The notes beneath the pieces are model-generated. The model saw only the letters and a program-made list of their open reading frames with translations. It did no database searches and was not told where the DNA came from. Of a stretch of DNA of 64,000 nucleotides, positions 18,927-40,684 are shown one piece after another (the stretch's first letter is position 1; every line of letters begins with the position of its first letter). The stretch covers positions 68,926 to 132,925 of the forward strand of contig JANRJQ010000014.1 in NCBI GenBank assembly GCA_033763895.1. The letters run 5' to 3'. Source of the DNA: Chloroherpetonaceae bacterium. GTDB taxonomy: Bacteria > Bacteroidota > Chlorobiia > Chlorobiales > Thermochlorobacteraceae. A program made the translations under genes and the position numbers.

Positions 18927-18944
18927 GAAATGACATACACTTCT

Positions 18945-19063
18945 ATTTGGTGGCTTGCAGGATTCCGGACAAGCCGGAATGACCAACCAATAGGCATGTC
19001 ATTTCAAACGAAGCAACGCGGTTTCAAGAAAGTTGGGAAATCTCAAGCGTGGGGAAGGTTGGA
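18945..19063. repeat. Same repeat family, copy 2 (diverged)
   Basis: caggattccg..atgaccaaccaa.aggcatgtcatttc.aacg.agc...gaaatctc...ggagatttct aligns with 18771-18887. Confidence 0.6.
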
Positions 19064-19314
19064 GATTTCTGACATTTTTTTGTTTTATCTCCGTGTGATT
19101 CGAGTACTTGCCTTGTGAACTTTGTGTTTTTAAATCCGAAACACGGAGGTCACTGAGAAAAACCACAGAGAGCACAAAGGATTATTGCGTCTTCGCGGCT
19201 TTGCGAGAAACAGTAGCCTCGTAAGGTGGTTTCAGCACTTCGAAAAGATTAGGGCGACACGGGCAAAAACACATAATCTCCTTGCGATATGGTAAGAAAA
19301 GGGAGATAAAAAAA

Positions 19315-19917
19315 TTAGAAAAGAAGAAGATTAGTGCCGAAAGTTAATGAGAAAGAATTAAAACTTGAGCTTGTCACTGAGTTTGTTTGTTGAAAATCTG
19401 ATCGAACGGTTAATACATTTGCATTTAATTCAGAATAAATCTCAAGAAAATTTGCAACTTTTTTTGAAACACCTATACCAAAAATAAATCCTAATGTAGG
19501 AACATTTTTTGATGAAAAAGTTGTTGTTTCGGAATTAGGAGTAAATTTACTTTCAACTTTTACAAAACTAATTATCATTCCTGCTCTTGTGTATAATTCA
19601 ATATTATCATTGATAAAGAATATTTTGGTACTTGGAATTAAGATGAGGCCTGAGGTTTTATATTCATATCTTTGATCCAAAATATTGCTGCTTATCAAAC
19701 TCCCTTCTAATTGAACTTGAAAAATATTGTTTATTCGATAAGCTAAACCTGCATTATAGCGTAAGCCCGACTCATTGTCCAATAGAAATGAGTCATTTTC
19801 TTTTAGAATTGGCAAATGATAACCACTACTTAAACTAAGAGAAAGTTTTTGTGCTTCTAATTGTGTAGTGAAAAATAATAAGTTAATTGCGAGAAAAATT
19901 CCCTTTTTCATATTCAT
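19315..19917 (-). CDS. Small outer-membrane beta-barrel protein
   Basis: Signal peptide (MNMKKGIFLAINLLFFTTQLEAQ), alternating beta-strand pattern, C-terminal ...NLLLF. Confidence 0.55.
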   Translation of the reverse strand: MNMKKGIFLAINLLFFTTQLEAQKLSLSLSSGYHLPILKENDSFLLDNESGLRYNAGLAYRINNIFQVQLEGSLISSNILDQRYEYKTSGLILIPSTKIFFINDNIELYTRAGMIISFVKVESKFTPNSETTTFSSKNVPTLGFIFGIGVSKKVANFLEIYSELNANVLTVRSDFQQTNSVTSSSFNSFSLTFGTNLLLF

Positions 19918-19920
19918 ATC

Positions 19921-20478
19921 CTATAAATCTTTTTTAATACCAATCGAAGTTCCAAAGTTACTATAAGGAATAGTTCCACCATCAATTAAATTCCCATTTG
20001 CTTCAATGAAAATTCCAAATAGATTTTGAATGGGATAAGTAAGACCAAGCCCACCTGTAAACCCAAAACCGAATTTGAAGCCCGAACGAAACCCTGAGGG
20101 GCTAAAGTCCATATTATTCAAAGAAAGACCTAATCGCGAGTACAATTGAATAGATTCTAATTTCTTATTTAATACAATAAAAGGTGAAAAACCATAGCCA
20201 ATTGTTTTATATTGACTTAACCCAGAACTTCTCCCGCTAAAGTAGAAACCATCAATTTCCAGACTGATAAGTTCAGAAAGGTGATAACCAACCGATCCGT
20301 TCAATCGGATTCCTGTTCCAGAATTTGTAATGGTGTTACTGAATCCACTTCCAAACTCAGGAAATCCTTCTGTCACACCAAAGTAATAACCTCCACCAAA
20401 CTTCGTGTAAATGGTTTGTGCCAAAATACTACTGGGAAGAAGAACAATTAAAGCAATTAAAAAAAAATGCTTTTTCAT
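19921..20478 (-). CDS. Small outer-membrane beta-barrel protein
   Basis: Signal peptide (MKKHFFLIALIVLLPSSILAQ) and Gly/aromatic-rich beta-strand repeats. It sits 3 nt from the downstream gene. Confidence 0.55.
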   Translation of the reverse strand: MKKHFFLIALIVLLPSSILAQTIYTKFGGGYYFGVTEGFPEFGSGFSNTITNSGTGIRLNGSVGYHLSELISLEIDGFYFSGRSSGLSQYKTIGYGFSPFIVLNKKLESIQLYSRLGLSLNNMDFSPSGFRSGFKFGFGFTGGLGLTYPIQNLFGIFIEANGNLIDGGTIPYSNFGTSIGIKKDL

Positions 20479-22077: not shown

Positions 22078-25000
22078 TTACTTCACAAGCATCATTTTCT
22101 TTGTCGCGGTGTTTTTTCCGGAACGTATGGCGTAAAAATAAATACCACTCGAAAGCTGCGACGCATTGAACCGCGCCTCGTATTGCCCTGCTTCTTTGCG
22201 CTCATTGACAAGCGTTTGCACTTCGCGCCCCAAAATATCATACACCTTCAGCACCACAGCCCCGGCTTCGGCGATTTGATAGCGAATGGTGGTGGAAGGG
22301 TTAAATGGATTCGGGTAATTTTGATCCAATGAAAATTGATACGGCGTACGAACCGAAATCGGCTTGTGCTCCGTGGCCACACCGGAATAGCTCACATCAT
22401 AAAGTTTGTAGTGATACATCGTGCCGGGCTTTAGACTCCGTTCATCTTCGTATTGATAGGATTTTCCAACGGAAGCATTCCCTGCGCCGCGGAGTGCAGG
22501 ATGAGTACGGAAATCGGCAATGGTTTCATAAGGCCCCGATTCGGTGAGAGCGCGTTTCAATACATAGCCTTGATTATCCCGCTCGGAGGCCGTTGCCCAC
22601 TGAAGTGAAATTTTCGTTTCAGTTGCTTTCGCTGTAAACGAAGTCAGTTCAACGGGTAGTGGGTTATCGCCTAAGGTGCCGATGGCAAACTCGCCGAGCA
22701 ATGACATATTCTTTGCAATCATATAATTTCCTTTGAAGTCGAAAATCACAAAGCCGTAGTCATTAACACTTTCCCAAAATGCCGTTTCATCATCGCGGCG
22801 AAGCAGTTGAAGAGTACTTATGTTGGTAACACCTGTGATGGGTGTAAGATCAAGAACGAGGTCGAAATTCATCGTATAGCTTGGCGTGGTGAGGCTCCAA
22901 TATTTATCGGCAGAAATTCCCGGAACCCCTAAAGGCAATGAGCCATTGATGGTTGGGGAGACTCCGGCGAAAGTCGTGAGGGGAATATCGCCACCATTTG
23001 AGTTGATTGCCACACGAATGATAGCCCCAGTTTTGCCAATGATAAACCCGCCCGTTTGCCCATCGAGGATGGTTGGGTTAATAATTTCAGAGCGCAAGAA
23101 ATCGGTAATTGTCCCGAAATCAACTTGTAAAGTTGTTGGTGCTGGGTCGGCTGTTAATACAATTGCAAGAGGATTATCTTCTGCACGGAGGTTATCTAAT
23201 AACGGGTTTGCCCCTGTGTTTAACACATTCAACAAATTAAACTCACAGTTCAACCGATTAAGAAGCGGTAAATCGCTGAGGTCTAATTCGGTAAGTTGGT
23301 TATCATAACAATATATTTCTTCAAGTAAGGGATTTTGTGAGAGATCAAGCGATGTTATTTGATTTTCATGACAATCCAACACTCTTAAAAATGGATTGCC
23401 TGAAGTAACCAAAGTGGTAAGAGAATTATCTCCAATGTTTATGGATTCCAAACGAACAAAGGCTTCAAGCCCTGTTGAATTTACTATGCCACTAAAACCT
23501 AATGATAAGTCTGTAATTGCCGCGGCTGCTGAAGGATTGGTGATAAAATTTGCTCCGTCAAAAGTGATTCCATAATCGGCTGCTAATTTATTTCTAAAGT
23601 TTTCATCAGGCACTTCTCTTGGTCCGATTTTATAAGATGCCGGAGCTGTATCAAAAAAGGTCGTAACTGAACCGGAAGGAAAAGGCAAGGCTGAAACCGT
23701 TAAGAAAAAAGGCGTGGGATTTCCTTGGATATCCAATGACTCAAGAACCGTATTGGGTGTAATATCTAACTCGGTAAGTTGATTATTAAAGCACGCCAGT
23801 TCGATAAGCCCTGTAGCGGGCGATAAATCCAAAGTGGTCAGTGGATTATCGTTGCAGATTAAGTTGGTTAAGGTGGAAGTGCTTGGAAGCGTGAGCGAGG
23901 TAAGTGAATTGAAACTGCAATCCACAAGTTGCAATGTTGTGTTATCCGTTAGATTGAGAGTTGTTAAAGCATTGTATTGGATACGCAAATCAGATAACGA
24001 CGAAAGTCCGGTTAAGTTTACGGAAGCGATATTACTTTCGCTACAGCGAAGGGTCACCAAATTCGGATTTCCGGTGAGGTCAAGGGTTGTTAAATCGGTA
24101 TTGTTGCCATACAGCAATGTAAGGGCAGAAAGCATTGAAACATCAATCGATATGATTGGGTTTGTCCCAAAATCCAAGTAAGTAAGTGCTGTATTGGAAC
24201 TGACATCAAGGCTGGGTAAAAGATTATTTGGGCAGCGAAGATCATTGAGCGCTGTCAAGGTTGAAACATCAATGGAGGTAAGGTCATTATCGCCGCAAGC
24301 TAAAAAAGTAAGATTCGGATTGTTCAGTGTTAATGTGGTTAAATCGTTCAGCGAGCAATCTAAGTAAGTGAGATTGGCGTTTGAGGAAACATCTAAAGAA
24401 GTTAAAAGATTAGCAGAACATCTTAAGTTAGATAAATTTGAATTTGATGAGACATCAAGGGTATTTAAAGAATTTCCCGCACAGAACAATGTCCCTAAAG
24501 TGCTTGTTGAAGGAAGCGTAAGCGTAGTTAAGTCATTATCATGAGCATAAACTTCAATAAGCGCAGTGTTTGCCGATAAGTCTAGTGATGTTATCGAATT
24601 GACTTGACAGGAAAGTGTTTGTAATAAAGGGTTATTGCTGAGATCTAATGAAGTAAGTGCATTTCCAGAACAGTATAAAAGTTGCAATGAGGGTAACATT
24701 GAAAGATCTAAAGAAGTTAGAAGATTGACATCACAGCCTAAAACTCCTAAAGATGTGTTTCCACTCAAATCAAGTGTAGTAAGATAATTATAGTCACAGT
24801 AAAGTGTAATAAGACCTGTGAAGAGCTTAATACCTGTCAAATCAAGAATGTTTGAATCGCTAACATCTAGTTCATTAATCCCCGCCACAAACGGCAAATT
24901 GGTTACCCTATTGCTCATATTGAAGGTTACGCCTTCTGCAATCAATGCCGTGCGGAAATTGGCATCGGGCACTTCAAGGTCGCTGCCCAAGTATTTGATG

Positions 25001-28177: not shown

Positions 28178-30661
28178 TTGAAAGACTTTCATACACCTAT
28201 TACACGACCTACTTCACAAATTATTCAACCGCCCCACACACCGCTTGAAACTTGGTTTCACAAGCAGGGGTGGAAGCCGCTTCCTTTTCAAACACAAGCG
28301 TGGGAAGCCTATCATGCGGGGAAAAGCGGTGTAGTTTCTGTAGCAACAGGCTCCGGAAAAACCTATTCCATTTTTCTTGCGGCAGCACTGAAAGCCTCTT
28401 CAAAAGTTACCGCCCCGGGGCTAAAGATTTTATACATTACCCCGCTTCGCGCGCTTTCGCGCGATATTGAGCGTGCGCTCAAACGCCCAATTGAAGAACT
28501 CGGATGGCCGCTCACAGTCATGTCGCGCACCGGCGATACCGGTGCCTCGCAAAGGCAAAAGCAAAAAACACGCCTCCCTGAAATTTTGATTACCACGCCT
28601 GAATCGCTCTCGATCTTGCTTTCCTATCCCAATGCAGAAATCGCCTTTGCCGGGCTGCAATGCACCATTATTGATGAATGGCACGAACTCTTAAGTTCCA
28701 AACGCGGGGTTCAAACCGAGCTTTGTCTTTCTGCATTAAGAATGCTCGCACCCAATATGCAAACGTGGGGGCTTTCAGCAACGATCGGCAATCTGAGCGA
28801 AGCGGCGCAAACCCTTGTCGGCTCGGGCAATCCCTATACCATAATTCAATCGGAGGAATCAAGGAAAATTCATGTTCACACGCTTCTGCCCGAAAGCACC
28901 GATAGCTTTCCGTGGGCAGGGCACTTGGGGCTTGTCATGCTGCCTGAACTCCTAAAAACATTGGAGATTAAAACATCGACTCTTCTTTTCACCAACACAC
29001 GAAATCAAGCCGAGCGGTGGTATCAAGAGCTTAGTGCGGCACTTCCAAAATTCTTTCACAAGATGGCTCTTCATCACGGCAGTATCGACCGCGAAGAGCG
29101 CGAGCGCATCGAAACGGGTGTGAAACTCGGTGTCATCAAATGGGTGGTTTGTACATCGTCGCTCGATTTAGGGGTGGACTTTGCGCCCGTTGAACGTGTG
29201 GTACAAATTGGCTCCGCAAAAGGTTTTGCACGATTGATGCAGCGCGCCGGTCGCTCAGGGCATCAACCCGGAAAGACCTCAGAGATTTTATTTGTGCCCA
29301 CCAATGCGCTTGAAATTTTAGAAGTTGGGGCATATCGCCACGCGCTTCAAGAACGGGAAATTGAATCACGCGTGCCGCTAAAGAAACCTTATGATTGCCT
29401 CATTCAGCATCTTGTTACACTTGCATGTGGGGATGGGTTCGATGAAAGCGCAGTGCTAAATGCCATACGAAAAACGCATGCGTACGAAAGCCTTACCGAT
29501 GAAGAATTTCGATGGTGCCTTGAATTCATTACTACCGGCGGGCGATCTCTCCAAAAGTACACCGAGTATAAAAAAGTAGTATTTGATATGGGGCGATGGC
29601 GAATCGCGACCCCGCGGCTTGCACGGCTTCACCGAATGAGTATCGGCACAATTCTCTCGACGCCTTCAATGACGGTAAAATTTCAACGCGGAAAGCCCTT
29701 AGGCACCGTTGAAGAAAGTTTTATCGCAAAGCTCAAAGAAGGCGATGCGTTCTTCTTTGCAGGAAAAATGTTGGAACTTGTGACGGTGAAAGACTTGAAC
29801 GCCATCGTGAAACTCGCGTCGAAAAATTCATCGATTGCGCCATCGTGGGCAGGAGGACGGTTGCCGATTTCCCCTTCACTCAGTGCGTTTTTGCGAAAAG
29901 AACTTGCCTCACCTACCGGCTCACTCACCGAAGCGGAACGAACGGCACTCAAGCCAATATTCGACGCGCAACGGCGTTATTCACAAATTCCAAACGAGCG
30001 GGAGGTGCTGATGGAGCTATGCAGTTCAAAGGAAGGGCGGCATCTTTTTGTCTTCCCGTTTGAAGGGCGGTTTGTTCACGAGGGAATCGCGGCACTATGG
30101 TCTTTTCGTTTTGCCGAAGTGCTTAAAGGGACATTCAATTTCGCCTTTAATGATTACGGATTTGAGATTTTAGGCCCTCACGATTATCCGTTTCAGGAGC
30201 TTTTTTCGGCGCATTTTCTGGCTACCGAGCGGCTTGGCGAGGAAATTGAGCGCAGTTTGAATATGGCGGAATTGGCGAACCGGCAGTTTCGGGGAATTGC
30301 GCAAGTCGCGGGGCTCGTCTTTAATGGCTACCCGGGCGAAAAGCGCGCTCAGCGGCAGTTGCAGGCGAGTTCGCAGTTGCTTTTTCGTGTCTTTAATGAT
30401 TACGACTCGGAGAGTTTATTGCTGAAACAGGCACGGCAAGAGGTTTTGGAACAGCAGTTGGAGAAATCGCGCTTAGAGGCGTGTTTGGAGCGAATGAAAA
30501 ACAGCCGTTTGATTTTTCAAGAAACCGAGAGGCCTTCGCCTTTAGCCTTTCCGTTGATGATTGAGCGGTTGGGAACGATGCGCGGGAGTCTTTCGAATGA
30601 AACCTCGCTTGAGATTGTTGAGCGGCTGAAGCGCGAATTCAGCGCGGGGAAAAGGGGCTAA
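28178..30661 (+). CDS. Ligase-associated DNA damage response DExH-box helicase (Lhr-core-like)
   Basis: 827 aa with motif I VATGSGKTYS and motif II IIDEWHEL. The size and the neighbourhood with the ligase and exonuclease fit the family. The tracked start is a TTG and is uncertain. Confidence 0.8.
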   Translation: MKDFHTPITRPTSQIIQPPHTPLETWFHKQGWKPLPFQTQAWEAYHAGKSGVVSVATGSGKTYSIFLAAALKASSKVTAPGLKILYITPLRALSRDIERALKRPIEELGWPLTVMSRTGDTGASQRQKQKTRLPEILITTPESLSILLSYPNAEIAFAGLQCTIIDEWHELLSSKRGVQTELCLSALRMLAPNMQTWGLSATIGNLSEAAQTLVGSGNPYTIIQSEESRKIHVHTLLPESTDSFPWAGHLGLVMLPELLKTLEIKTSTLLFTNTRNQAERWYQELSAALPKFFHKMALHHGSIDREERERIETGVKLGVIKWVVCTSSLDLGVDFAPVERVVQIGSAKGFARLMQRAGRSGHQPGKTSEILFVPTNALEILEVGAYRHALQEREIESRVPLKKPYDCLIQHLVTLACGDGFDESAVLNAIRKTHAYESLTDEEFRWCLEFITTGGRSLQKYTEYKKVVFDMGRWRIATPRLARLHRMSIGTILSTPSMTVKFQRGKPLGTVEESFIAKLKEGDAFFFAGKMLELVTVKDLNAIVKLASKNSSIAPSWAGGRLPISPSLSAFLRKELASPTGSLTEAERTALKPIFDAQRRYSQIPNEREVLMELCSSKEGRHLFVFPFEGRFVHEGIAALWSFRFAEVLKGTFNFAFNDYGFEILGPHDYPFQELFSAHFLATERLGEEIERSLNMAELANRQFRGIAQVAGLVFNGYPGEKRAQRQLQASSQLLFRVFNDYDSESLLLKQARQEVLEQQLEKSRLEACLERMKNSRLIFQETERPSPLAFPLMIERLGTMRGSLSNETSLEIVERLKREFSAGKRG

Positions 30662-30697
30662 GGATATCGTAATTTGATTTCTAAAAAATCGAATCGT

Positions 30698-31402
30698 TTA
30701 CTTCTTCTTCACGATTCTTGTCACAAACACCACATGACTCCAATCATCTTTCTTCTTTTCAATATGCTTGGTGGCTTTGAAATTCTTTGAGGCCACTTCA
30801 TATTGGAGTAGAGTCGATTTAACCCATTTTGGTTTAATGGTTAGCCCTTGGTCTTGCCAATGATCTTCGTCAAAATTGTAGAGCAATTGCTTTTCAAGTT
30901 TGGGTACTTTCCCTGCAACATTCCAAATTTGAATTCGGCTAAGCAGATCGGGGTTTTGTGGGTAAAATGAAAAGGTGGCTAATCTTCGTTTATCGGGAGA
31001 GATTATTGGGAGAACATCAAACATCATTTTATTGCCATTGTCTTTTCGAACCAAGAGGTACTGGCGGCGTTCTTTGTTTCTGAATTGAAAGGCGAAGCAA
31101 TTGATAGACGGGAGAAAATCATAAAAGTAGTAGGCTTCACCGGCTTCATCTTTTGAGACCAATTCAATCTCTTCTTTATTTCTGAGAGTTACGACTAACG
31201 TTTGAGCGTCTCTTCGTGAAACAAATTTTCCAAACCTTTTTAATTGATATTCTTCGATGTAAGCGGCCTTTTCATCAAGATCGGTAAGATGCTTGCCGAG
31301 CGTATCCATCACGGCCACTTTGCTTTTCTTCGCTTTTTGTGCGAAGGTCTCGTGTGGTAATGTCAGCAGAATGAAAAAACAAATCAATAAAAGTCGAACC
31401 AT
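30698..31402 (-). CDS. Secreted hypothetical protein
   Basis: Start moved to the Met giving MVRLLLICFFILLTLPHETFAQ (signal peptide). No family recognised. Confidence 0.5.
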   Translation of the reverse strand: MVRLLLICFFILLTLPHETFAQKAKKSKVAVMDTLGKHLTDLDEKAAYIEEYQLKRFGKFVSRRDAQTLVVTLRNKEEIELVSKDEAGEAYYFYDFLPSINCFAFQFRNKERRQYLLVRKDNGNKMMFDVLPIISPDKRRLATFSFYPQNPDLLSRIQIWNVAGKVPKLEKQLLYNFDEDHWQDQGLTIKPKWVKSTLLQYEVASKNFKATKHIEKKKDDWSHVVFVTRIVKKK

Positions 31403-31535
31403 AGTCGATAAATAGTTTTGGATGATAGTGATGCTGACTGCCGAAGGTTTTTTAGGGAAACTGCCTTTACCTCGATCCGGATACAACGATGATAATGTAT
31501 GTTTGTAAAGGAATCTAAGGGAAAATTTTACAATC

Positions 31536-33179
31536 TCAAAATAGTTTCATGAGCGCCTTTGCTTCAACAAGCGAATCTGCCTCACCCGCCGATTTATCTA
31601 ACCGCCATCTCAAGATACGAGGAAAGCGAACCGCGATGCCTGATTTATGCCGTTTTGATGGGCCAATACCTTCAAAGGCAATTTCAAAAACCTGCAACGG
31701 TTCTACGGCTCTCGCCGGCCCGAAACGCTCTTTGGTATTGGCGCGAATCCATTTATCCAATTCGCGAATCTCGTCATTCGAAAGTCCGGAATACGCTTTT
31801 GCAAAAGTGACATGCTCGGTTTTTGCTTCGTTCCAAAGTGCAAAGGTATAGTCGGTAAAAAGCCCCGCTCGCCCTCCCCGACCTGCTTGGGCATAAATGA
31901 GCACGGCATCGAGTGTCATTGGTTTTACTTTGTACTTCCACCAATCGCCGCGCTTTCTTCCAAAGAGATATGCCGAGTTTTTGCGCTTGAGCATCAAGCC
32001 TTCCGCTTTTTCTTCCTTAGCCCGAAGCCATAGCGCATGCAAGGCTTCAATCGTGGCAAATTTAAGCAACGGCGAAAGTTGCAACCTCGGATGTTGCATT
32101 GAATGCGCTACAATAATTTCTTCAAGCAGTTTTCGCCGTTCGATAAAAACATTTTGCCGAACATCCTTTCCCTCCCACTCAAGACAGTCGTAGGCGATAA
32201 ACGCGGCGGGTGAATCTTTCAAATCGGCAGGGCGAATTTTCTTGCGCGAAATGCGGGTTTGAAGTTGTTGGAATGGTCGTATGGCGCCTTCGCGCCACAC
32301 CACCACTTCGCCGTCGAGCACCGTTCCGCTTGGTAAGGCTTCACCAAGCGAGGCGAAATCGGGAAAGTTTTGGGTGAGCAAATTACCATCGCGCGACCAC
32401 AATGCCCACGCATTGCCGCGCTTCACCAATTGCCCGCGAATGCCATCCCACTTCCACTCTGCCGCAAAATCAAGCGGATTCTCCGTTTCAAATTCTTTAA
32501 GATCAAGCGGGCTTGCAAGATAAAACGGGTAAGGTGTCAGGTGCTCCGTACTTGGGATTTTCAAGGAGTGAAGAAACGACGCGCGCGGCTCAAAGTCGCC
32601 GAATAGCCGCTCCGCTACAAGCGCTTCATCGACCTCATACGCCTCAGCAAGCGCTCGCTGAATCAGGGTTTCAACGCCAATCCGAAACCCTCCGGTGATG
32701 AGTTTATTGAGCACAAAACACTCGCGTTGAGAACGCCCAGCCCACCACGCTGCAAGCGTTTCGGCTCGCCGGGCTTCGGTTTGCTTGGCAAGTGCTGGGA
32801 TTCTTTCTTCCATCCACACGGCAAGACTTTCTTCTTCAGTGGATTTCGTGGGTGATATTTGAGCGAAATCGGCGCCTCTTTGGCTTACCGTTTGAAGCAA
32901 GAGAGAAATCATTTCGGCGGTATCCCCTACGGCGGCCTGACATTCGTCGATAAGCCAAGATGGCATTGGAATTTCTTTGGCAGACATTACCAATAGAAAA
33001 CAGGTCAATAAGTCACGCGAGGTGAGCACGCGTTTGTGGCGTTTGCCTAAGAAAAGATAGACCGCCCACGCGGCATCTTGCTCCGTGACGGAGAGAAGAT
33101 AGGCTTTGAGGAGTGCGGTTTTCTCTTTGGTGGAGGTGGTGGCATCTAAGCGGTCAATGAGTTCAGCGAAGCGGCGCAA
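31536..33179 (-). CDS. ATP-dependent DNA ligase
   Basis: 547 aa with the adenylation motif EWKWDGIRGQ (KxDG), plus later EGLMLK and WWKYK motifs. Confidence 0.9.
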   Translation of the reverse strand: MRRFAELIDRLDATTSTKEKTALLKAYLLSVTEQDAAWAVYLFLGKRHKRVLTSRDLLTCFLLVMSAKEIPMPSWLIDECQAAVGDTAEMISLLLQTVSQRGADFAQISPTKSTEEESLAVWMEERIPALAKQTEARRAETLAAWWAGRSQRECFVLNKLITGGFRIGVETLIQRALAEAYEVDEALVAERLFGDFEPRASFLHSLKIPSTEHLTPYPFYLASPLDLKEFETENPLDFAAEWKWDGIRGQLVKRGNAWALWSRDGNLLTQNFPDFASLGEALPSGTVLDGEVVVWREGAIRPFQQLQTRISRKKIRPADLKDSPAAFIAYDCLEWEGKDVRQNVFIERRKLLEEIIVAHSMQHPRLQLSPLLKFATIEALHALWLRAKEEKAEGLMLKRKNSAYLFGRKRGDWWKYKVKPMTLDAVLIYAQAGRGGRAGLFTDYTFALWNEAKTEHVTFAKAYSGLSNDEIRELDKWIRANTKERFGPARAVEPLQVFEIAFEGIGPSKRHKSGIAVRFPRILRWRLDKSAGEADSLVEAKALMKLF

Positions 33180-33181
33180 AG

Positions 33182-33574
33182 TTATTTGATTTGACTTGCA
33201 AAGGGATTGAGGAGTTTAAGCTTTGGAATCGCTTCAAAGTCCCTTTCATTTCTGGTTATCAGGGTTGATTCTGTGAATAAAGCAGAAGCGGCAATGATGC
33301 TATCTCCCAATTTCATTTTCTTTTTGCGGCGAAGTTGAATGGTAAGATCTTCGATTTGCTTATTAATAGGAATCGCAAAAAATTGGTTGAGCAAGTTATT
33401 TAGAAGTATCTCATCGTGCTTCGTTGCTAAAGGAAATGACAATATTTCAATACGTGTTACTCGTGAGTAAAAACATTCATTATTGTTAAGGAATGCTAAG
33501 GCGAAAAAAGGTAATACTTCAGGTTCTTTTGCAGTCGCATAAATAAAAATGTTAGTATCAAATAAATACTTCAT
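33182..33574 (-). CDS. vapC: PIN-domain toxin VapC
   Basis: MKYLFDTNIFIY...LGDSIIAASA...LITRNERDF, carrying the PIN acidic residues. Its stop lies 2 nt before the ligase start. Confidence 0.85.
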   Translation of the reverse strand: MKYLFDTNIFIYATAKEPEVLPFFALAFLNNNECFYSRVTRIEILSFPLATKHDEILLNNLLNQFFAIPINKQIEDLTIQLRRKKKMKLGDSIIAASALFTESTLITRNERDFEAIPKLKLLNPFASQIK

Positions 33575-33759
33575 TCTTCATTTCTTAATTCTTTCAAATA
33601 CTGGAGTATTTCTTCTTTTCTATCTTCAAACATTCCAAAAGTCTTTTCAACATGAGAATAATCAATCTTCTTTTTCTTTTCGATGTTCTTAGGCTTTTTA
33701 ACGACAGCGGATTCGTTCTTCACCTTTCTGACTTTTACCGGTGATTTGATTTGATTCAT
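33571..33759 (-). CDS. Putative VapB-type antitoxin
   Basis: 62-aa ORF overlapping vapC by 4 nt. No domain recognised. Confidence 0.5.
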   Translation of the reverse strand: MNQIKSPVKVRKVKNESAVVKKPKNIEKKKKIDYSHVEKTFGMFEDRKEEILQYLKELRNEE

Positions 33760-33908
33760 AATTCTTTAAAAATTATTGAAGCTTATTTGATACATATTCA
33801 CATGAAAACATTACAATTATTCCAAATGATTACCAAATTTAGAGTTTTTTTCAGAGCTAAGGCTGATTTCTATTCGATTCAAAAAGAATTTCTTTCACTG
33901 GAATTTTC

Positions 33909-34913
33909 CTACTCCCCCTCGCCTTCGAAGAGCGTTTCAAGCGGCTCAGCGCTAAGGTGGTGGATTTCGCGGAGATAGCGTGCGAGCACATCCGATTGTC
34001 CGTGGGTGATATACACTTGTTTCGCACCGGTGGCAAGAATGGTGCTCACGAGGTCGTTCCAATCGGCGTGGTCGGAGATTGCAAAGCCGCGGTCGTAGCC
34101 GCGTTGCTTCTTCTTTCCACGAACTGCCATCCACCCCGAGGCAAAGGCCGTTTGCGGGTCTTGAAATCGGTTCATCCACTCCGAGCGGTGTGTCGAAGGC
34201 GGCGCTAAGATAATCGATTGCCCGAAGCTTTGTTTCTTTCTTCCTCCACCCGCGGGTAAGGTTGCTGGAGAGAAGGGTGCGAGCGTGTAGCCACATTCGC
34301 GGTATAGTTCCGAAAGGGCGATGGCAGCACCGTGAAGATAAATCGGTGGTGTATCGAGCAAAGCAAATTCGGCGAGCAATCGCTGTGCTTTTCCGAAAGC
34401 ATAACAAAAAACAAGGCTCGGGCCGTTATACCCTTTTGCCCAATCCACAATTTCTTTGGCGAGTTCGGCGGTATTCTGCCATTGATAAATCGGGAGCCCG
34501 AACGTGGCTTCGGAGATGAAGGTATCGCATTGCACAACTTCGAAAGGCTCGCAACTGCGGTCGGGCGTGCGTTTATAGTCGCCCGAAACAACCCAAACGG
34601 ATTCGCGGCCATTCTCATCTTTCCCTTCGATGCGGATTTGTGCGGAGCCAAGCACATGCCCGGCGGGGTGAAACGACACCCAAACATCACCAAAGCGTTT
34701 TTTTTCACCATAAGGAACGGCGGTTCCGCTGATGTTGCCGAGCCGCTTTTGCATTGCACGGAGTCCGGTTGGCGTAGCGAAGTAATGCGTGTGACCGGGT
34801 CGTGCGTGGTCGGCATGAGCATGCGTAATGATGGCGGTTGGAACAGGTCTCCACGGGTCTATGTGGAAATTGCCCTTCTTGCAGTAAAGCCCTTCAGTGG
34901 TGACGGTGACCAT
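33909..34913 (-). CDS. Ligase-associated DNA damage response exonuclease (metallo-beta-lactamase/beta-CASP)
   Basis: 334 aa with ITHAHADHARPGH (HxHxDH) and a C-terminal ISDHADWNDL...YITHG. Confidence 0.85.
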   Translation of the reverse strand: MVTVTTEGLYCKKGNFHIDPWRPVPTAIITHAHADHARPGHTHYFATPTGLRAMQKRLGNISGTAVPYGEKKRFGDVWVSFHPAGHVLGSAQIRIEGKDENGRESVWVVSGDYKRTPDRSCEPFEVVQCDTFISEATFGLPIYQWQNTAELAKEIVDWAKGYNGPSLVFCYAFGKAQRLLAEFALLDTPPIYLHGAAIALSELYRECGYTLAPFSPATLPAGGGRKKQSFGQSIILAPPSTHRSEWMNRFQDPQTAFASGWMAVRGKKKQRGYDRGFAISDHADWNDLVSTILATGAKQVYITHGQSDVLARYLREIHHLSAEPLETLFEGEGE

Positions 34914-34966
34914 TATTACACTTGATTATTTCCTTGAAAGCCATTTCCCAACCTACAAAATCAATT

Positions 34967-36286
34967 TTAATTTTTTTTATTCGTAAATGGCATAAAAATG
35001 CCCTTTGAAGTGGATTGGTCGAGAATTTGAATGGCTTCTTCTCGGTTTGGGAAAAGGATTTCTTGTCTTCGAATTCCGGCATAATACCGTGTGTAAAAAT
35101 GAAGGAAAAAAATAAACGAAAAAAGATATAGAATTACTGAAATTGCCGAAATCACCTGTATTTGATATTGGCGATATTTCAAAAGAAATTGAAATTTTTC
35201 TTTGATTGAAATCAATAAAAACCCTGCTGAAAGGAGTGTGAAAGATGAGTAAATATGGTATCTCGAAACCATTGCTTGAGATAGACCAAATTGGCTTCGA
35301 GTGAGTGCTGCCAATAGCGACGTCCCCAAAAAGAAAATGACCATAAAGAAGAATGGATTTCTCCAAACCCGTTTTAATTCATTTTCTTCTTGGTGAATCA
35401 ACCCCTCAATTGCCACTACCCATACCAAAACCCCAATCGTAACCGACGGGATAAGTGAGATAAGGGTAAGAGTAGGAAAATTATTTCCTCCAATTGAAAA
35501 TGCACTTCCTAAAAATGAAAAACTGAAAATCATCATCGATGTTATTTGATCGAAGGAAATTTGAATTTCTGATGAAGATGGTTTGGATAAAAAAATAGCG
35601 AGATGACCCAATGATAAAATTATGGAAATGAGTAGCGCCCAATATTTTTTATTCATCGCAAAGTAAAAGGCAACCAAAAAAGGTAAAAGCAGACCATTTC
35701 CTTGTGCAAAAGGCGCTAAAGATGAAAAAAGTAGTGCGATTACCCATCCATACTGAGATTTATGATTTAGCCAATATGCTGTAAGAACAAGGAGCGCAAG
35801 GACTGCTGACGATTGGATGCTTGCCATTGCCCAAAGCATACTTTCGGCTGAACCGGTGTGAAAGAAAAAGATTGTACAAATAATAATTATCCAAGGGGAT
35901 TTTGATATCAATTCATTTGTGATTTCAATTTCCTTAAGAAGTGAAACAAAACAGAGGTAGGCTGATAAATGAAGCAGCAATCCGTAAAAAATGATTCGCT
36001 GAAAATGAATTTCTCCAAATAAAGCGTGATCAAATAAAAAAAATAGTCTTGTAATTACAATTCGATGTTCATTATGCGGAGAAAATAATAAAGAAAATGT
36101 TTCACTTAATGTTGATTACCCTTTGATTCGGTTTAGAAAATCAATTAAAGTGAAGTCATCTAATATTGGAAAATTCGCTGATCCAAAAAGGGAAAGGAAA
36201 GTATAAACCCCAATGATTCCGATTGATGCCCAAAGCGAAAACTCGGAGTGGAGAAAAATCAATTGCTGCTTTTTATACAAATTCAT
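34967..36286 (-). pseudogene. Polytopic membrane protein (GT-C-like?) with one in-frame TAA
   Basis: An ATG at 36286 opens 56 codons (MNLYKKQQLIFLHSEFSLWASIGIIGVYTF...LNRIKG). A TAA follows at 36116-36118. The same frame then continues (STLSETFSLLFSPHNEHRIVITRLFFLFDHALFG...) into the tracked ORF 34967-35980. Confidence 0.6.
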
Positions 36287-36393
36287 AGGGTCGAATTCAA
36301 TTCAATGAATTCATTTGATTAATTTTTAATATAAACCCTTATTAAAAAATCTTGGGAATCTCTCAAGATTTATTTTTTCCATTATTTCACTTT

Positions 36394-36531
36394 CACCAAA
36401 GCGACGCTTTTCATCATATAGGACTGCAGTGTCCGAAAAATTGCCGAGCCGCTTTTGAATTGCCCGAATTCCGGTTGTGGTGGAAATCGCCTTTTTTTTC
36501 AGTATAGCCCTTCAGCGGTGAGGGTGACCAA
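36394..36531 (-). pseudogene. Decayed duplicate of the exonuclease gene 5' end
   Basis: It aligns with 34688-34913 apart from a deletion of about 88 bp that removes the HxHxDH region. It encodes (L)VTLTAEGLY* and TTGIRAIQKRLGNFSDTAVLYDEKRRFG, against MVTVTTEGLYC and PTGLRAMQKRLGNISGTAVPYGEKKRFG in the intact gene. Confidence 0.75.
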
Positions 36532-36593
36532 CTCTTTCAATTTTTTATGTTAAATAATAACCCAAAATGGATTCGGGGCTTTATTGACTTTTT

Positions 36594-37586
36594 TTACTTG
36601 ATAAGCACCATTTTTTTCGTTGAAGTAAAGTTCCCTGCGGTGAGCTTATAGAAATAAACGCCGCTGCTTAAGTTCCCTGCTTGAAAAGGAATTTCGTAAC
36701 GACCCGCAGGTTGAGCGCTGTTTACTAAGGTTGTAACCACTCGCCCTAAAGCATCATAAACAACCAAGTTCACCGTTGCCCGTTCTGCCAAGTTGTAACG
36801 AATGACCGTACTCGGGTTAAAAGGATTCGGGAAATTTTGACTCAATTCAAACCCCAATGCTTTTGATTCATTAATTCTTGCCGACGCAACACCAAAGTTT
36901 TTTACCGTACCGTTATTTTTATTGATTGAATAATCGATTACCGTGCCGTTTTGCCAATCATTTAGACGCCAATACCCAACAAGGCCGCTATCCGGAGAAG
37001 TGTAGGTTGATGCCCTGAGCGAATCACTCCACGCTGAGGCAATTTGAGTGGCAGTTCGAGCGACACGCCACACCCGAGTTTCTTGCATACTGCCATAAAG
37101 AAAGAATAAGTTATCGCCGCGTTGGCCTAAAAAAAGATTGGCTGTGTTGGTATCAGGAAGCGACGTTGTCAGGGTTTCTTTAATAAATTTTCCATTGAAA
37201 TAGACGCTTAATTTCAAACTATCAAATACCGCAGCATAATGTGTCCAAACGCCGGTTTTGATGGTTGAATCCGACCCGATTTGCCGTTCGTTGGGTGTAA
37301 ACCAAACTTCCCCAACATTCTCATAAATCCAAAGGCTTGGGGGACGGTTGGGAACTGCTTCTTTTGAAATCAACGCTTGCCAATTGGAACTTAAAATGGT
37401 GTCGGTTCGGACCCAAGTTTCCAAGGTCCATTGTTTCGAATAATTATAGGCCGAGATATGCGGGATTTCGACATAAGAAGTCCCTGTAAAGGGCATTGAA
37501 TTTGTAAATGGCTGTGCGTGAAGCGTATGAGAAAATACAAAGATGCCCAATAGGAGCATGAAAAGATGGATGTTATTTTTTATCAT
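36594..37586 (-). CDS. T9SS-sorted LamG/concanavalin-A-like lectin domain protein
   Basis: Signal peptide, a LamG-like core (WTLETWVRTD...ALISKE...LSVYFNGKF), and a C-terminal NPFNPSTVIRYNL...GVYFYKLTAGNFTSTKKMVLIK. Confidence 0.75.
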   Translation of the reverse strand: MIKNNIHLFMLLLGIFVFSHTLHAQPFTNSMPFTGTSYVEIPHISAYNYSKQWTLETWVRTDTILSSNWQALISKEAVPNRPPSLWIYENVGEVWFTPNERQIGSDSTIKTGVWTHYAAVFDSLKLSVYFNGKFIKETLTTSLPDTNTANLFLGQRGDNLFFLYGSMQETRVWRVARTATQIASAWSDSLRASTYTSPDSGLVGYWRLNDWQNGTVIDYSINKNNGTVKNFGVASARINESKALGFELSQNFPNPFNPSTVIRYNLAERATVNLVVYDALGRVVTTLVNSAQPAGRYEIPFQAGNLSSGVYFYKLTAGNFTSTKKMVLIK

Positions 37587-37651
37587 TGTATTATTTGTTT
37601 TGGTTAAATAAAAGATAAAGATTTTCTCTTAATCGATTTCATTTCATTGAT

Positions 37652-38071
37652 ATGAAAAAAGTTTTTCTTTTGCTCCTGATTGCAAGTACGACATTTGCTA
37701 AAGAAGGCATTTCACAAACACCTGAAACCGTTGTTGAAGCCCAGCTGAAAGCCTACAACAAACGCGACATCGAAGCCTTCCTTGCCACCTATCACGATAG
37801 TATTGAGGTATGTGAATATTCCGGTAAGGTTACAATGAAAGGCAAAGACGGCTTACGCTCGGTTTACGGCGGGATGTTCAAAACACTTGAAGTCTTAGAA
37901 GCGAAAATTTCAAAGCGAATCACCATTGGCAATAAAGTGATTGATCAGGAAACCGCGACTTTCACTTCCAAAACCCCTGAAGGAAAATTGCAGTCGAATT
38001 CGCTCACGGTGGTTGTAATCTACGAGATTACGAATAACCTGATTTCCCGCGTTACTTTCATTCGAAACTAA
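37652..38071 (+). CDS. SnoaL-like/NTF2-family protein with a signal peptide
   Basis: 139 aa with PETVVEAQLKAYNKRDIEAFLATYHDSIEV, typical of the NTF2-like fold. Confidence 0.65.
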   Translation: MKKVFLLLLIASTTFAKEGISQTPETVVEAQLKAYNKRDIEAFLATYHDSIEVCEYSGKVTMKGKDGLRSVYGGMFKTLEVLEAKISKRITIGNKVIDQETATFTSKTPEGKLQSNSLTVVVIYEITNNLISRVTFIRN

Positions 38072-38083
38072 CCAGCTTTTTTC

Positions 38084-39022
38084 TTAAATCGCTCGTTTCA
38101 ATTGTTTACACAGTTCAGCGGCGTAGCGCGCGAGAATCTCAGCTTTTTCGGGGTCGATAATGGCGGATTGCGCGCCAAGCGTAAGCCCTTTATCCGTAAA
38201 GAGGATCCCGTGTTGGTCAATCGCCGATTCCTTCACAAATCCAAAATCCTTTTCTCGCCACTCCAAAAGAAATCGCTCGAATTCACCCGTCAGCGTACGC
38301 TCAAGCAAGCGTAGGGTTGACGCCACGGCATAGAATTTTTCTGCGAATTCCGGGTTTTGTGAGACATGCGCCGGCGAGCCTTTGATTTTCACCTTCTTTC
38401 CTTCATCGCCAAAGTACCCTTTGGTGTAAAACGAAATCGCCGCCGAAGCCGCAGTTTGAATGGCCGAAGCAACAATTTTTCCAAAAATACCACTCCCTTC
38501 TGATGGCGCGATTTGTGTAGCACCTTTCATTGAAGGACTGGAGATAATGAGCAGAAATTCGCCGGGCGAGAGTGAAATGCTTTCACAGGTAAACTTTAAG
38601 CTTAAATCCATTTCATCGAGTCGATAGACATGTGTTGTCGGTTTATTATCATAGTTAGCACTATTGAGCCTGATGAATGATTCCATTCGCCACCGAATTC
38701 CGTCGGTTTCGCCGTGAAGCTCATAGCGGCCGGTGCGAATGGTTCGCGGACTGCCGTCGGGGTTTTCCCCGAAATGGCAAAGATGTTGACCCAGCCTTTC
38801 CTCTGCACCCGCCACGCTTGCAGCCGTTTCTTTTTGCGAATCAACAGTTTGTTGATACTCGGCGCTTGCCACTTCAATGGCTTTGCTTCGTTTGCGATAA
38901 GTGAATGCCCTGAACAGCGCAGCAAGTGCAAGCATCAGATAAAGAAAGTTTCCGCCAAAAATGCCATAGAATACGCTTTCCCAAACACTTGTTAGAATTT
39001 CTTCCATACTGCCTCCGTGCAC
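38084..39022 (-). CDS. Membrane-anchored hypothetical protein
   Basis: 312 aa with an N-terminal TM segment (FYGIFGGNFLYLMLALAALF). No family recognised. Confidence 0.5.
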   Translation of the reverse strand: MHGGSMEEILTSVWESVFYGIFGGNFLYLMLALAALFRAFTYRKRSKAIEVASAEYQQTVDSQKETAASVAGAEERLGQHLCHFGENPDGSPRTIRTGRYELHGETDGIRWRMESFIRLNSANYDNKPTTHVYRLDEMDLSLKFTCESISLSPGEFLLIISSPSMKGATQIAPSEGSGIFGKIVASAIQTAASAAISFYTKGYFGDEGKKVKIKGSPAHVSQNPEFAEKFYAVASTLRLLERTLTGEFERFLLEWREKDFGFVKESAIDQHGILFTDKGLTLGAQSAIIDPEKAEILARYAAELCKQLKRAI

Positions 39023-39080
39023 GGTTTGTTATTGGTTCAATCTTTTAGTTGCTTCAATTCAAATTTATGGTTGCATTTGT

Positions 39081-39509
39081 TCAGGTCAATTTATCCTTCG
39101 GCTGTTGCTGAAGTTTTTCAAGAATCTGTATGGCTTCATTTGCTTTAAGAGCGGGCACAAAGCAATAGTCGTGATAAAACCCGGCGATGATATTGGCCGC
39201 AATGGATTCTTTTGCCAAAGCTGAACTCACGGCGGCGGTGAGCCCAACTGCTTCTAAGCTTGAGTGAACGGAAAGTTTTATCGCGCGATAAGGAGCTGAA
39301 ATTTGTTGAATGTGATTATTCTCTTTTAATGCTTCAAGCGATTGTTCATTCACCACCAAAGTCGTTCCTTCTGTTTCTTGAATGATTGCAAAAGGTTGAA
39401 GCGCGAGCAATTCGTGCGAAACTTTTGGGAGTGAAATAAAGAAATACGCATCGGGCAGCAACACCGGTGAGAGGTTGCGAAGCAAATGGTGGAGATTGGT
39501 TTCGCCCAT
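39081..39509 (-). CDS. ACT-domain-containing protein
   Basis: Start moved to the ATG at 39509 (MGETNLHHLLRNLSPVLLPDAYFF...). The tracked start is a TTG. The C-terminal part reads LEAVGLTAAVSSALAKESIAANIIAGFYHDYCFVP. Confidence 0.6.
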   Translation of the reverse strand: MGETNLHHLLRNLSPVLLPDAYFFISLPKVSHELLALQPFAIIQETEGTTLVVNEQSLEALKENNHIQQISAPYRAIKLSVHSSLEAVGLTAAVSSALAKESIAANIIAGFYHDYCFVPALKANEAIQILEKLQQQPKDKLT

Positions 39510-39589
39510 TGCTGAATTTAGTTGATATTCAAGCAGATGCAGTTCTATGAAGTTAGAATAACTTTGCTGCCGTTGCAAATAGGCTAAGA

Positions 39590-40684
39590 TTACGGTAAAG
39601 CCTTTTTGAACGTCACAAACCGATTGTTTTTTAAGTCGGCGACATAAATGTTTCCTTCTTCATCGGCCACAATGTCATGCGGGACAGCAAGGTTGCCCTG
39701 TTCCTTTCCATATTCGCCAAATCTCTCAATCACATTTCCGTTCAAATCCAAAATCACCACTTGGCTTTGCAGCGGTTTCGTAGGATCATCAAGTACATTC
39801 CCGCCATCCGCGACATAAAGCTTTTCACCTACCATATATAACCCAAACGGCCGCCCGATTTCCGGCTTCTGCCAAATTGAAATCAACTCACCCTCGGGCG
39901 AATACACCTTGATTCGGCTGTTGGCACGGTCAGCCACATAAATTCGCCCACTGCTATCAGTCGTGATGCCGTGAGGCAAGTGAAAGGCATTTTCTCTGTT
40001 TCCAAATTCACTTTCTTCCCACAAGAACTTCCCCGAAGAATCGAAAGCGGCGATCCGATAATTTCGGTATCCATCGGAGACAATAATTCCGCCGTTCTTT
40101 GTAAAAGCCACATCGGTAGGCCGAGCAAAAAGATACGGCCGATGTGGTGCGGGAATTATGGGGATGCTTGTGCGCAGGCGGAAGAGTGTTTCGTAGGTTT
40201 GGGTGTGAGGCTCGCCAATGGTTTGAAGCAAGGCACCATCACGGGTAAAGCGGTAAATTAAATTCGTTTCGGTATCGGTAATCCACACTTCACCTTTGGG
40301 CGAAACCGCAAGTCCGTGCGGCGATTTGAACATTCCTGCTCCCCATTCTTTTACCACCGATTTCGTTTCGCGGTCAAATTCAATGACCACCGGTTTTTGA
40401 ATGGGTTCTCGATTCCCATATCCTTTATCGGCGCGATGCAGGGCGAGCAAATTGCCGTTGGGCAAGAGTGCAACACCCACGGCATCGTTGGTTTGAATGG
40501 CTGGCGTTTGATAAATCTCCGCACGGTAGCCGGCAAGGGAATCGGGCGTTGAAGGAAGAAAATCTAAATAAACCACCTTTGGCTTTGCAAAATAACTCCA
40601 CGCCAAAAGCGCAACGCCTGCAAGCAGCACATAAATGCTTAACCGCAACGCCCACCGAAAGGCAAATTGAAAAAGCTTTTTCAT
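39590..40684 (-). CDS. NHL-repeat six-bladed beta-propeller protein (peptidyl-alpha-hydroxyglycine lyase-like)
   Basis: N-terminal TM or signal segment and repeated HG(L/I)..D..G.IYVAD-type NHL blades. Confidence 0.75.
   Translation of the reverse strand: MKKLFQFAFRWALRLSIYVLLAGVALLAWSYFAKPKVVYLDFLPSTPDSLAGYRAEIYQTPAIQTNDAVGVALLPNGNLLALHRADKGYGNREPIQKPVVIEFDRETKSVVKEWGAGMFKSPHGLAVSPKGEVWITDTETNLIYRFTRDGALLQTIGEPHTQTYETLFRLRTSIPIIPAPHRPYLFARPTDVAFTKNGGIIVSDGYRNYRIAAFDSSGKFLWEESEFGNRENAFHLPHGITTDSSGRIYVADRANSRIKVYSPEGELISIWQKPEIGRPFGLYMVGEKLYVADGGNVLDDPTKPLQSQVVILDLNGNVIERFGEYGKEQGNLAVPHDIVADEEGNIYVADLKNNRFVTFKKALP

Follow-up and report, generated by a model that had tools for sequence, protein, structure and literature searches.

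The 64,000-nucleotide window analysed here, meaning the whole stretch of DNA under study, carries an intact gene for a ligase-associated DNA damage response exonuclease of the MBL/beta-CASP type (33909 to 34913, minus strand, 334 aa). Its product scores 437 bits against the TIGR04122 profile (cut-off 325), residues 2-332 covering profile positions 2-326 of 326; the closest homologues are cyanobacterial, at about 60% identity, and the GC3 of the gene, 0.58, is the highest of the 47 open reading frames in the window. Genes for an ATP-dependent ligase (TIGR04120, 541.8 bits, cut-off 400) and an Lhr-Core helicase (TIGR04121, 1061.8 bits, cut-off 850) are present as well, and the intact genes of the locus thus match the NCBIfam equivalogs of the canonical Exo-Lig-Lhr-Core-MPE DNA repair cluster (Ejaz and Shuman 2018, as described in PMC7826289). 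Compared with the cluster outlined there, the one in our window is eroded: an AT-rich cassette lies upstream of the exonuclease gene, vapBC is inserted between the exonuclease and ligase genes, an unrelated gene follows the ligase, and the helicase is on the plus strand, opposite to the exonuclease gene. Neither the presence of MPE nor the collinearity of the four genes was found: vapBC and a 262-aa open reading frame break the gene order, and tblastn detected no MPE/PdeM gene in the 64 kb, the queries being open reading frames from five canonical loci that follow the helicase gene there and were assigned to MPE on position alone.

A decayed fragment of the 5' end of the exonuclease gene (36393 to 36531, minus strand, 139 bases, first codon TTG) lies about 1.5 kb upstream of the intact one, on the far side of a membrane-protein pseudogene. 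In pairwise alignment the fragment covers nucleotides +1 to +227 of the intact gene, except for about 89 nt that are missing. The initial annotation had described such a copy at 36394-36531, matching the first 226 nt or so; the match itself was upheld, and its bounds are refined here to 36393-36531 and +227. The repeat search recovered it as two direct-repeat blocks, 34687-34771 against 36393-36477 (85 nt, 74%) and 34876-34912 against 36494-36530 (37 nt, 86%), whose offsets of 1706 and 1618 are 88 nt apart. Likewise, when the fragment region was compared by blastn with the complete window, the search gave two collinear matches on the intact gene (77% identity over 86 columns, E 2.6e-11; 84% over 51 columns, E 1.1e-9) and nothing comparable elsewhere in the window, and tblastn with the exonuclease protein returned the fragment as the only secondary site in the 64 kb (E 1.5e-8). 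The longest run of identity between the two copies is 17 nt. Their homology starts approximately at the start codon and ends at +227, the GA of codon 76, and the non-coding DNA upstream of the fragment aligns with no significant similarity to that upstream of the intact gene. The fragment's own upstream context is marked by a terminator-like hairpin (36561 to 36577, minus strand), which follows a T9SS LamG gene (36594 to 37586).

Several lesions separate the fragment from a functional gene. Its translation reads LVTLTAEGLY and then a stop, with TTGIRAIQKRLGNFSDTAVLYDEKRRFG in a different frame, which reproduces both of the peptides given in the initial annotation. The stop is a TGA at 36501-36499, beside an A-run frameshift (one extra A within the A8 run at 36492-36499), and it aligns with Cys11, a residue invariant in all 119 orthologues compared. 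A deletion of about 89 nt, equivalent to nucleotides ~+52 to ~+140 and codons ~18-46 of the intact gene, spans H31-H36, and the HAHADH motif is consequently gone. The earlier estimate of a deletion of about 88 bp removing HxHxDH was therefore right about the motif, and its size is now resolved into an ~89-nt deletion plus one extra A, a net 88. The fragment is cut off after codon 76 and contains no open reading frame with HxHxDH and a beta-CASP region of the kind TIGR04122 describes; with the motif lost and the end truncated, it is incapable of encoding an enzyme. Changes at conserved columns (V4L, C11stop, I61F and G69D) represent decay after inactivation. The initial TTG need not be a start codon that has mutated, judging from the orthologues, which carry Leu at that column after M-x.

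The AT-rich cassette between the two copies (34924 to 36378, minus strand, 1455 nt) has a GC content of about 0.29-0.38 and a GC3 of 0.31, against 0.58 for the intact exonuclease gene and a window median of 0.42; by this measure its composition is foreign. Its only substantial open reading frame is the membrane gene, and no transposase, integrase or excisionase frame was found in 34924-36378. Nor does the cassette have significant terminal inverted repeats, its best end-to-end inverted alignment being equalled by 368 of 500 shuffles, and it accordingly does not qualify as an insertion sequence or transposon. Between the fragment and the membrane gene there is an 11-pair terminator-like hairpin with A/T runs on both sides (36347 to 36371). 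The polytopic membrane-protein gene (34967 to 36286, minus strand) is 439 codons long and is interrupted by an in-frame TAA at 36118-36116. Alignments with homologues of 415-458 aa run straight through this TAA, with an invariant NxPxxDD before it and an invariant HNEHRI after it. As had been proposed, then, one polytopic gene interrupted by a stop lies between the copies, probably a pseudogene of recent origin. In the NCBI annotation, only its 337-aa C-terminal open reading frame appears (SFU91_14075).

The membrane protein has no Pfam or NCBIfam match. Its next homologue among 5.8 billion proteins is 33% identical, no copies of the cassette or of the gene above that identity were found in the same collection, and the genomic contexts of the homologues are unrelated to repair genes. 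The structural model of one homologue, P0122 (pLDDT 86.9), gave as its top PDB matches in Foldseek STT3, AftA and ArnT, all of them GT-C enzymes (probability ~1, E 0.01-0.05, TMq 0.33-0.49); for the GT-C fold matches as a group, E-values were no better than 0.01-0.2, with TM about 0.45-0.5. Similarly to GT-C glycosyltransferases such as ArnT, STT3/PglB, AftA and PMT, the cassette protein is predicted to be polytopic and helical and to carry an acidic DD pair in its first loop; this pair is invariant in the 8 closest sequences, and the second Asp is almost always kept in a set of 24. Unlike those enzymes, the protein has no large soluble domain. It belongs to an uncharacterised family whose fold is predicted to be GT-C-glycosyltransferase-like.

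The cassette is bracketed exactly by two copies of a 14-nt direct repeat, AAGTG(A/T)AATAATGG, identical at 13 of 14 positions, a feature that is new relative to the initial annotation. The left copy, AAGTGAAATAATGG (36379 to 36392, minus strand), begins one base past the last homologous base of the fragment, and the right copy, AAGTGTAATAATGG (34910 to 34923, minus strand), constitutes positions -10 to +4 of the intact exonuclease gene, ATG included. None of 2000 shuffles reached a 13/14 match, and AAGTGWAATAATGG has only two perfect matches in the whole window. The repeat sets the junctions to the base and points, by its position, to an insertion event. The 10 nt before the fragment do not resemble the 14-mer: they agree at 2 of 10 ungapped positions (p = 4e-4 were both 75% homologous), and their global alignment score was matched by 1020 of 5000 random sequences.

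Regarding the age and origin of the two copies, the fragment shares 27 of 37 amino acids with the intact copy and at most 16 of 37 with any of the 119 best database orthologues; the residues TG.RA.QKRLGN.S.TAV are common to both and absent from the other orthologues. In sequence comparisons the two are sisters relative to those 119 orthologues and 80 GTDB loci. They have nonetheless diverged to a dS of ~0.70 and a dN of ~0.18 (omega ~0.26). Their differences fall 8/5/17 by codon position, which departs from equal thirds (p = 0.02), and the 17 of 30 at third positions exceed the neutral expectation of one third (p = 0.007). This third-position excess, together with the omega of 0.26, implies that most of the divergence arose while both copies were coding. 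A recent self-duplication, which had already been rejected from the sequence alone, is therefore not what the fragment represents; the accompanying proposal that it derives from a diverged orthologue stands as regards divergence, with the restriction that the orthologue must be a close one. The fragment and the intact copy have GC3 values of 0.49 and 0.58, a difference that is not significant (Fisher p = 0.52).

No parent gene closer to the fragment than the intact copy was found among the 119 orthologue N-termini and the 80 loci. One candidate, a Bacteriovoracales gene, was discarded: its first 17 residues match at 15 of 17 and the remainder does not, and since the match is confined to those residues it was judged to be convergence. 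A degenerate DNA pattern for TG[LI]RA[IM]QKRLGN had 0 matches in JGI metagenomes, and a phmmer search of 1.84 billion representatives with a 30-aa fragment peptide gave 4 weak matches, to long multi-stretch proteins and to no exonucleases. Fragments of the ligase, the helicase or a further exonuclease were not detected in the 64-kb window. As to relatives of the locus, the best exonuclease in the GTDB scan was 58% identical and had no neighbours in common, a search of 5.8 billion proteins contained nothing between 61% and 100% identity to the exonuclease, and the best match of the adjacent T9SS gene in the same collection was 38%; the collections searched yielded no pre-event locus.

The fragment shows no sign of function and is a commonplace scar of earlier recombination. 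We lean, by a little over even chances, towards a reading in which it is what remains, without function, of another allele of this lineage-specific exonuclease gene, one that had diverged moderately. In this history, the T9SS gene and its terminator would originally have been followed immediately by a resident exonuclease gene. DNA carrying the membrane-gene cassette, with the 14-nt repeat already on either side of it, and behind it a complete exonuclease gene, would then have come in. On the left it would have been joined illegitimately inside the resident gene at nucleotide +227; on the right, homology further downstream presumably served as the anchor, in the manner of homology-facilitated illegitimate recombination. 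The resident 5' stub, having lost its function, would then have gained the frameshift and stop and the substitutions at conserved residues, with the 89-nt deletion arising between short TTC-containing repeats, and the incoming copy would be the present working gene. We infer in this account the direction of the event, that is, which copy was resident, as well as the order of events and the mechanism of recombination. Besides the homology, the lesions and the old divergence under coding constraint, several observations argue for it: the fragment keeps its own upstream context beside the T9SS terminator, not homologous to that of the intact gene; the locus is rearranged relative to the canonical cluster, with vapBC inserted, the helicase inverted and MPE absent from the window; the 14-mers give exact junctions around a cassette of foreign composition; and the intact gene shows no chimerism. 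Against it, the cassette has neither a recombinase nor close copies elsewhere, the GC3 of the fragment does not set it apart significantly from the intact copy, and the selection signature over 43 codons disfavours neutral decay of one branch at only p = 0.075. The account also needs the incoming DNA to have stopped precisely where the left 14-mer has its outer edge.

That coincidence fits more naturally with a history resembling specialised transduction, in which the fragment, and not the working gene, is foreign. The cassette would be what is left of a small integrative element with a 14-nt attachment core overlapping the exonuclease start codon; aberrant excision would have carried off nucleotides +5 to +227 of a former host's exonuclease gene, and the element would then have integrated before the native intact gene. 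The coincidence of the fragment end with the start of the left 14-mer is explained in one step, as is the right 14-mer at -10 to +4; the foreign composition of the cassette also speaks for this history, and so does the lack of chimerism in the intact gene, which looks like one piece since neither GC3 nor the similarity profile breaks at codon 76. We nevertheless regard this history as fairly unlikely: the cassette has no integrase or excisionase frame, no recognisable 14-mer-like sequence stands upstream of the fragment, at the place where one is expected after site-specific integration, the collection of 5.8 billion proteins holds no copies above 33% identity, and a secondary fragment occurs in none of 80 other exonuclease loci. 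Its extension, that the core is placed over the start codon of ligase-associated exonuclease genes and that the fragment is a passenger recording transfer between two Chloroherpetonaceae-like lineages, seems to us quite improbable. An origin within the genome, by partial tandem duplication, is unlikely. Here a 237-nt unit (-10 to +227, in frame) would have been doubled, the upstream copy would have decayed for a long time, and a cassette would later have entered the second unit with a 14-bp target duplication. The order (+1 to +227)(-10 to +4) indeed resembles a tandem junction, the unit length is divisible by three, the copies are mutual closest relatives, and the fragment has derived changes at conserved columns. 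However, the third-position excess and the omega of 0.26 better fit coding constraint on both lineages, and neutral decay of a single branch is disfavoured (p = 0.075, on only 43 codons). Moreover, the 10 nt before the fragment should look like the 14-mer and do not, a dead 227-nt stub would need to have survived to a dS of 0.7, and a 14-bp target duplication is left unexplained where there is no transposase or terminal inverted repeat.

It is important to consider whether the fragment could be an artefact or could still serve a purpose. The source is a metagenome-assembled genome, in which two strain variants of the exonuclease gene might have been fused in a chimeric contig; we hold this to be extremely improbable, because the fragment has a deletion, frameshift and truncation of its own and sits between unique sequences, the longest identical run shared by the copies is just 17 nt, and a Logan contig from run DRR729080, which may come from the same sample, is 100% identical over 33524-39709, including both copies and the cassette. 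Retention as a functional element is very improbable, whether as a 10-codon leader open reading frame (MVTLTAEGLY) or as a promoter or regulatory RNA acting on the exonuclease or the membrane gene. There is a weak sigma-70-like match (36530-36501) with a downstream hairpin, but the promoter count of the region is at chance level, positions 30000-40000 have no Rfam match except a chance miRNA match, the lesions are typical of decay, and no conserved counterpart was found in the 80 loci, the JGI metagenomes or the 1.84 billion representatives.

A fragment beside an insertion is a genome scar of a known kind. Homology-facilitated illegitimate recombination is an established mechanism (PMC3240628), and the sequential displacement of T6SS effector genes is a case of xenologous gene displacement (PMC5361080). 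As in the remnants left by such events, our locus has a truncated, diverged copy beside new DNA with a complete replacement copy and one junction without homology inside the old gene; in contrast to them, the homologous anchor at the other end and the donor are only presumed, and part of the incoming DNA is a cassette that has a 14-nt direct repeat of its own. A further parallel is the e14 prophage at icd/icdC of E. coli K-12, an integrative element with the intact target gene on one side and, on the other, a pseudogene made of the displaced gene end, as recounted in PMC13626634 with reference to Hill et al. 1989. In both loci an insert is flanked by an intact gene and, across from it, by a short piece of the same end of that gene, diverged through conservative substitutions and lying in direct orientation; in ours, direct repeats like an att core stand at both cassette ends, with the partial gene copy next to the left one. 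Relative to the e14 case as described there, the end concerned here is the 5' and not the 3' end, the insert is 1.46 kb and contains no integrase or recombinase gene in 34924-36378, the fragment is much more diverged and internally deleted, and the short direct repeat is at the gene start instead of the inner end of the duplicated segment.

The result is mainly one of housekeeping, and the fragment and cassette imply no new biology. In annotation, the fragment is best entered as a pseudogene remnant, and the 337-aa "hypothetical protein" as the C-terminal part of a 439-codon gene broken by a nonsense codon. The locus also exemplifies a horizontally acquired Exo-Lig-Lhr repair cluster undergoing erosion in a poorly sampled lineage of the Chlorobi group, broken up by AT-rich insertions, and its base-exact junctions (fragment end, 14-mer, cassette, 14-mer, gene) will offer a clean natural example of illegitimate or site-specific insertion once related genomes exist. 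Finally, a second 14-nt repeat, also matching at 13 of 14 positions, brackets the neighbouring vapBC insertion, which hints at a possible common insertion mechanism that puts AT-rich cassettes immediately upstream of repair-gene start codons.

The exonuclease fragment is part of an ordinary recombination scar, in which a gene remnant lies beside an inserted cassette that is itself decaying; such scars are a known kind of feature, of which this one is a new example. The observation made in the initial annotation was correct and its interpretation broadly right overall. The contig (361,737 bp; locus tags SFU91_) comes from a metagenome-assembled genome annotated at NCBI as Chloroherpetonaceae bacterium. 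In minus-strand order, the locus begins with the gene of a T9SS-sorted LamG protein (37586..36594; nearest homologue 38% identical) and a terminator-like hairpin (36577..36561), followed by the fragment (36531..36393), a second hairpin (36371..36347), a membrane-protein gene (36286..34967), the intact ligase-associated exonuclease gene (34913..33909), vapB and vapC (33759..33182) and the ATP-dependent DNA ligase gene (33179..31536). The exonuclease (TIGR04122, 437 bits), the ligase (TIGR04120, 541.8 bits) and the Lhr-Core-type helicase encoded on the plus strand (28178..30661; TIGR04121, 1061.8 bits) all pass the curated NCBIfam equivalog cut-offs. Copies of the C-terminal sorting domain of the LamG protein, with about 60% identity, also occur at 13375-13629 and 22081-22335, both as the ends of large ORFs, one of them encoding a 1998-aa protein; these are ordinary paralogous secretion tags.

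When the fragment was aligned pairwise with nt 1-227 of the intact gene, two collinear blocks were recovered (85 nt, 74% identity; 37 nt, 86% identity). They are the sole notable matches in the whole 64-kb window (E 2.6e-11 and 1.1e-9), which bears out the presence of a second copy of the exonuclease 5' end; a tblastn search of the window with the exonuclease protein likewise gave the fragment as its one additional site. We obtained the same peptides as those first translated from the fragment. The offsets of the two blocks differ by 88 nt, and the deletion of about 88 bp originally described does remove the HxHxDH motif, the net figure being made up of a deletion of about 89 nt plus one extra A within an A8 run. 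The deletion spans about +52 to +140 of the intact gene, takes out H31-H36 (HAHADH) and is flanked by two short TTC-containing stretches. The reported stop codon is a TGA at 36501-36499, in place of a Cys invariant across 119 orthologues, and homology ends at +227, that is, at codon 76. The first codon of the fragment, TTG, need not be a mutated start because it aligns with a Leu present in 116 of the 119 orthologues, which start M-x-L-I-T-V. The fragment cannot encode an exonuclease. It has no Rfam match and no conserved counterpart in the searched collections, promoter-like matches around it do not exceed chance level, and nothing suggests another function; it is a relic. A single-assembler artefact is unlikely, since an independent Logan contig (from run DRR729080) is 100% identical to the window over 33524-39709.

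Our analysis also revealed a 14-nt direct repeat that is new relative to the initial annotation. The fragment ends exactly where AAGTGAAATAATGG (36392..36379) begins, and 13 of its 14 positions are identical to AAGTGTAATAATGG (34923..34910), which covers -10 to +4 of the intact gene; none of 2000 shuffles of both flanks attained this match, and no further perfect match to AAGTGWAATAATGG occurs elsewhere in the window. The two 14-mers enclose a cassette of 1455 nt (36378..34924) with a GC content of 0.29-0.38, against 0.427 for the window and 0.55 for the exonuclease, and without significant terminal inverted repeats at its ends. Its sole ORF of note is the polytopic membrane-protein gene, whose in-frame TAA (36118-36116), noted earlier, breaks up a genuine gene: its homologues (415-458 aa, 31-33% identical) align across the stop from first Met to end, with the invariant motifs NxPxxDD before it and HNEHRI after it. 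The nonsense mutation is probably recent, given that the frame is otherwise undamaged. Homologues elsewhere do not adjoin repair genes. The protein matches no Pfam or NCBIfam family and is a member of a family that lacks annotation (about 415-690 aa; P0122-P0144), in which both motifs are invariant in the eight closest members and nearly so across 24. In a PDB search with the structure that AlphaFold predicts for P0122, an intact homologue (pLDDT 86.9), the top of the list consisted entirely of GT-C glycosyltransferases (STT3, AftA, ArnT) with modest scores (E 0.01-0.05, TM 0.33-0.49); the predicted fold of the family is GT-C-like.

The fragment shares 27 of 37 comparable residues with the intact copy and only 16 with the best of the 119 orthologues, and the intact copy itself shares no more than 19 with those orthologues; the same pattern was found among 80 GTDB loci. 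Because some residues are common to both copies and absent from orthologues, the two are sister sequences within a lineage-specific clade. The description of the fragment as derived from a diverged orthologue holds if a close one is meant. As already proposed, they are not recent duplicates: over 43 codons, with the frameshift repaired first, dN was 0.18, dS 0.70 and omega 0.26, and differences by codon position were 8/5/17. Under this pattern a fully neutral divergence is rejected (p = 0.007); a model with two constrained lineages fits (p = 0.34), and one with a neutral and a constrained branch does so only marginally (p = 0.075). After inactivation the fragment decayed further, with derived states (V4L, C11stop, I61F, G69D) at positions where conservation among orthologues is 72-100%. 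One other candidate relative was rejected: the exonuclease at L048 188-1153 (a Bacteriovoracales MAG) has first 17 residues, LVTLTAEGLYCKAGDFY, of which 15 are identical to the repaired fragment, against 13 for the intact copy, and since its next region is unrelated to the fragment we judged the resemblance to have arisen convergently within a short conserved stretch.

Of the 47 ORFs in the window, the intact exonuclease ranks first in both GC (0.549) and GC3 (0.579), and its nearest homologues (60-61% identical) are mostly Leptolyngbyaceae-type cyanobacteria, not Chlorobi or Bacteroidota, which suggests horizontal acquisition. Its GC3 in relation to that of the ligase (0.51), helicase (0.50) and fragment (0.49) hints that it arrived later than the rest of the cluster, the difference from the fragment not being significant at 43 codons (p = 0.52). 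The gene is continuous across codon 76 (GC3 0.553 before, 0.585 after), and its N-terminal/C-terminal identity ratio of 0.88 lies within the orthologue range (0.72-0.93). Among the sequenced genomes searched, no relative was close enough for a synteny test of the native copy.

The origin of the fragment is constrained by the old, mostly synonymous divergence, the sister relationship, the 14-mer junction, the unbroken intact gene and a homology whose upstream limit is the start codon, the fragment keeping its own upstream context beside the T9SS terminator. We lean towards a history in which the illegitimate end of incoming DNA would have cut a resident exonuclease gene at +227, the segment bringing with it the cassette between its two repeats together with an entire related exonuclease gene, and its other end would have recombined by homology farther downstream; we liken this to homology-facilitated illegitimate recombination, whose mode combines one illegitimate and one homologous end (PMC3240628). 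The main rival is the mirror image, which would explain more naturally why fragment and 14-mer abut to the base: the cassette would be a degenerate integrative element with a 14-nt core that overlaps the start codon of the exonuclease, and the fragment would derive from a former host by aberrant excision. The resulting arrangement resembles that of e14, which lies between icd and the icdC fragment (PMC13626634). This rival lacks a recombinase, a 14-mer upstream of the fragment and any further copy of the element, and we consider it rather unlikely. Partial tandem duplication of an in-frame 237-nt unit followed by decay is an unlikely source, as the codon-position pattern speaks against it and the non-coding DNA upstream of the two copies has no detectable homology. 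That an insertion mechanism not yet described lies behind the repeat-bracketed cassettes seems to us quite improbable.

Taken together, the repair genes give the impression of an acquired cluster that has been eroded. Compared with the canonical order Exo-Lig-Lhr-Core-MPE, the cluster is rearranged: Exo and Lig, adjacent in the canonical loci compared, are parted here by vapBC (GC about 0.31-0.34), the helicase is inverted and converges on the ligase, between these two lies an unrelated ORF of 262 aa (30698-31486, minus strand), and no MPE/PdeM homologue was detected in the 64-kb window. The AT-rich vapBC module is itself enclosed by a second 14-nt direct repeat on the minus strand (33181-33194 and 33741-33754; 13/14 identical), with TCAAATCAAATCAC within vapB codons 2-6 and TCAAATCAAATAAC at the vapC end, 1 nt ahead of the ligase TTG start; 6 of 2000 shuffles attained 13/14 in this low-complexity sequence, and the test was post hoc. 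Elsewhere in the window, genes at 15898-20478 and 13372-14871 have GC (0.29-0.37) and GC3 (0.19-0.34) far below their surroundings and are possibly another acquired island.
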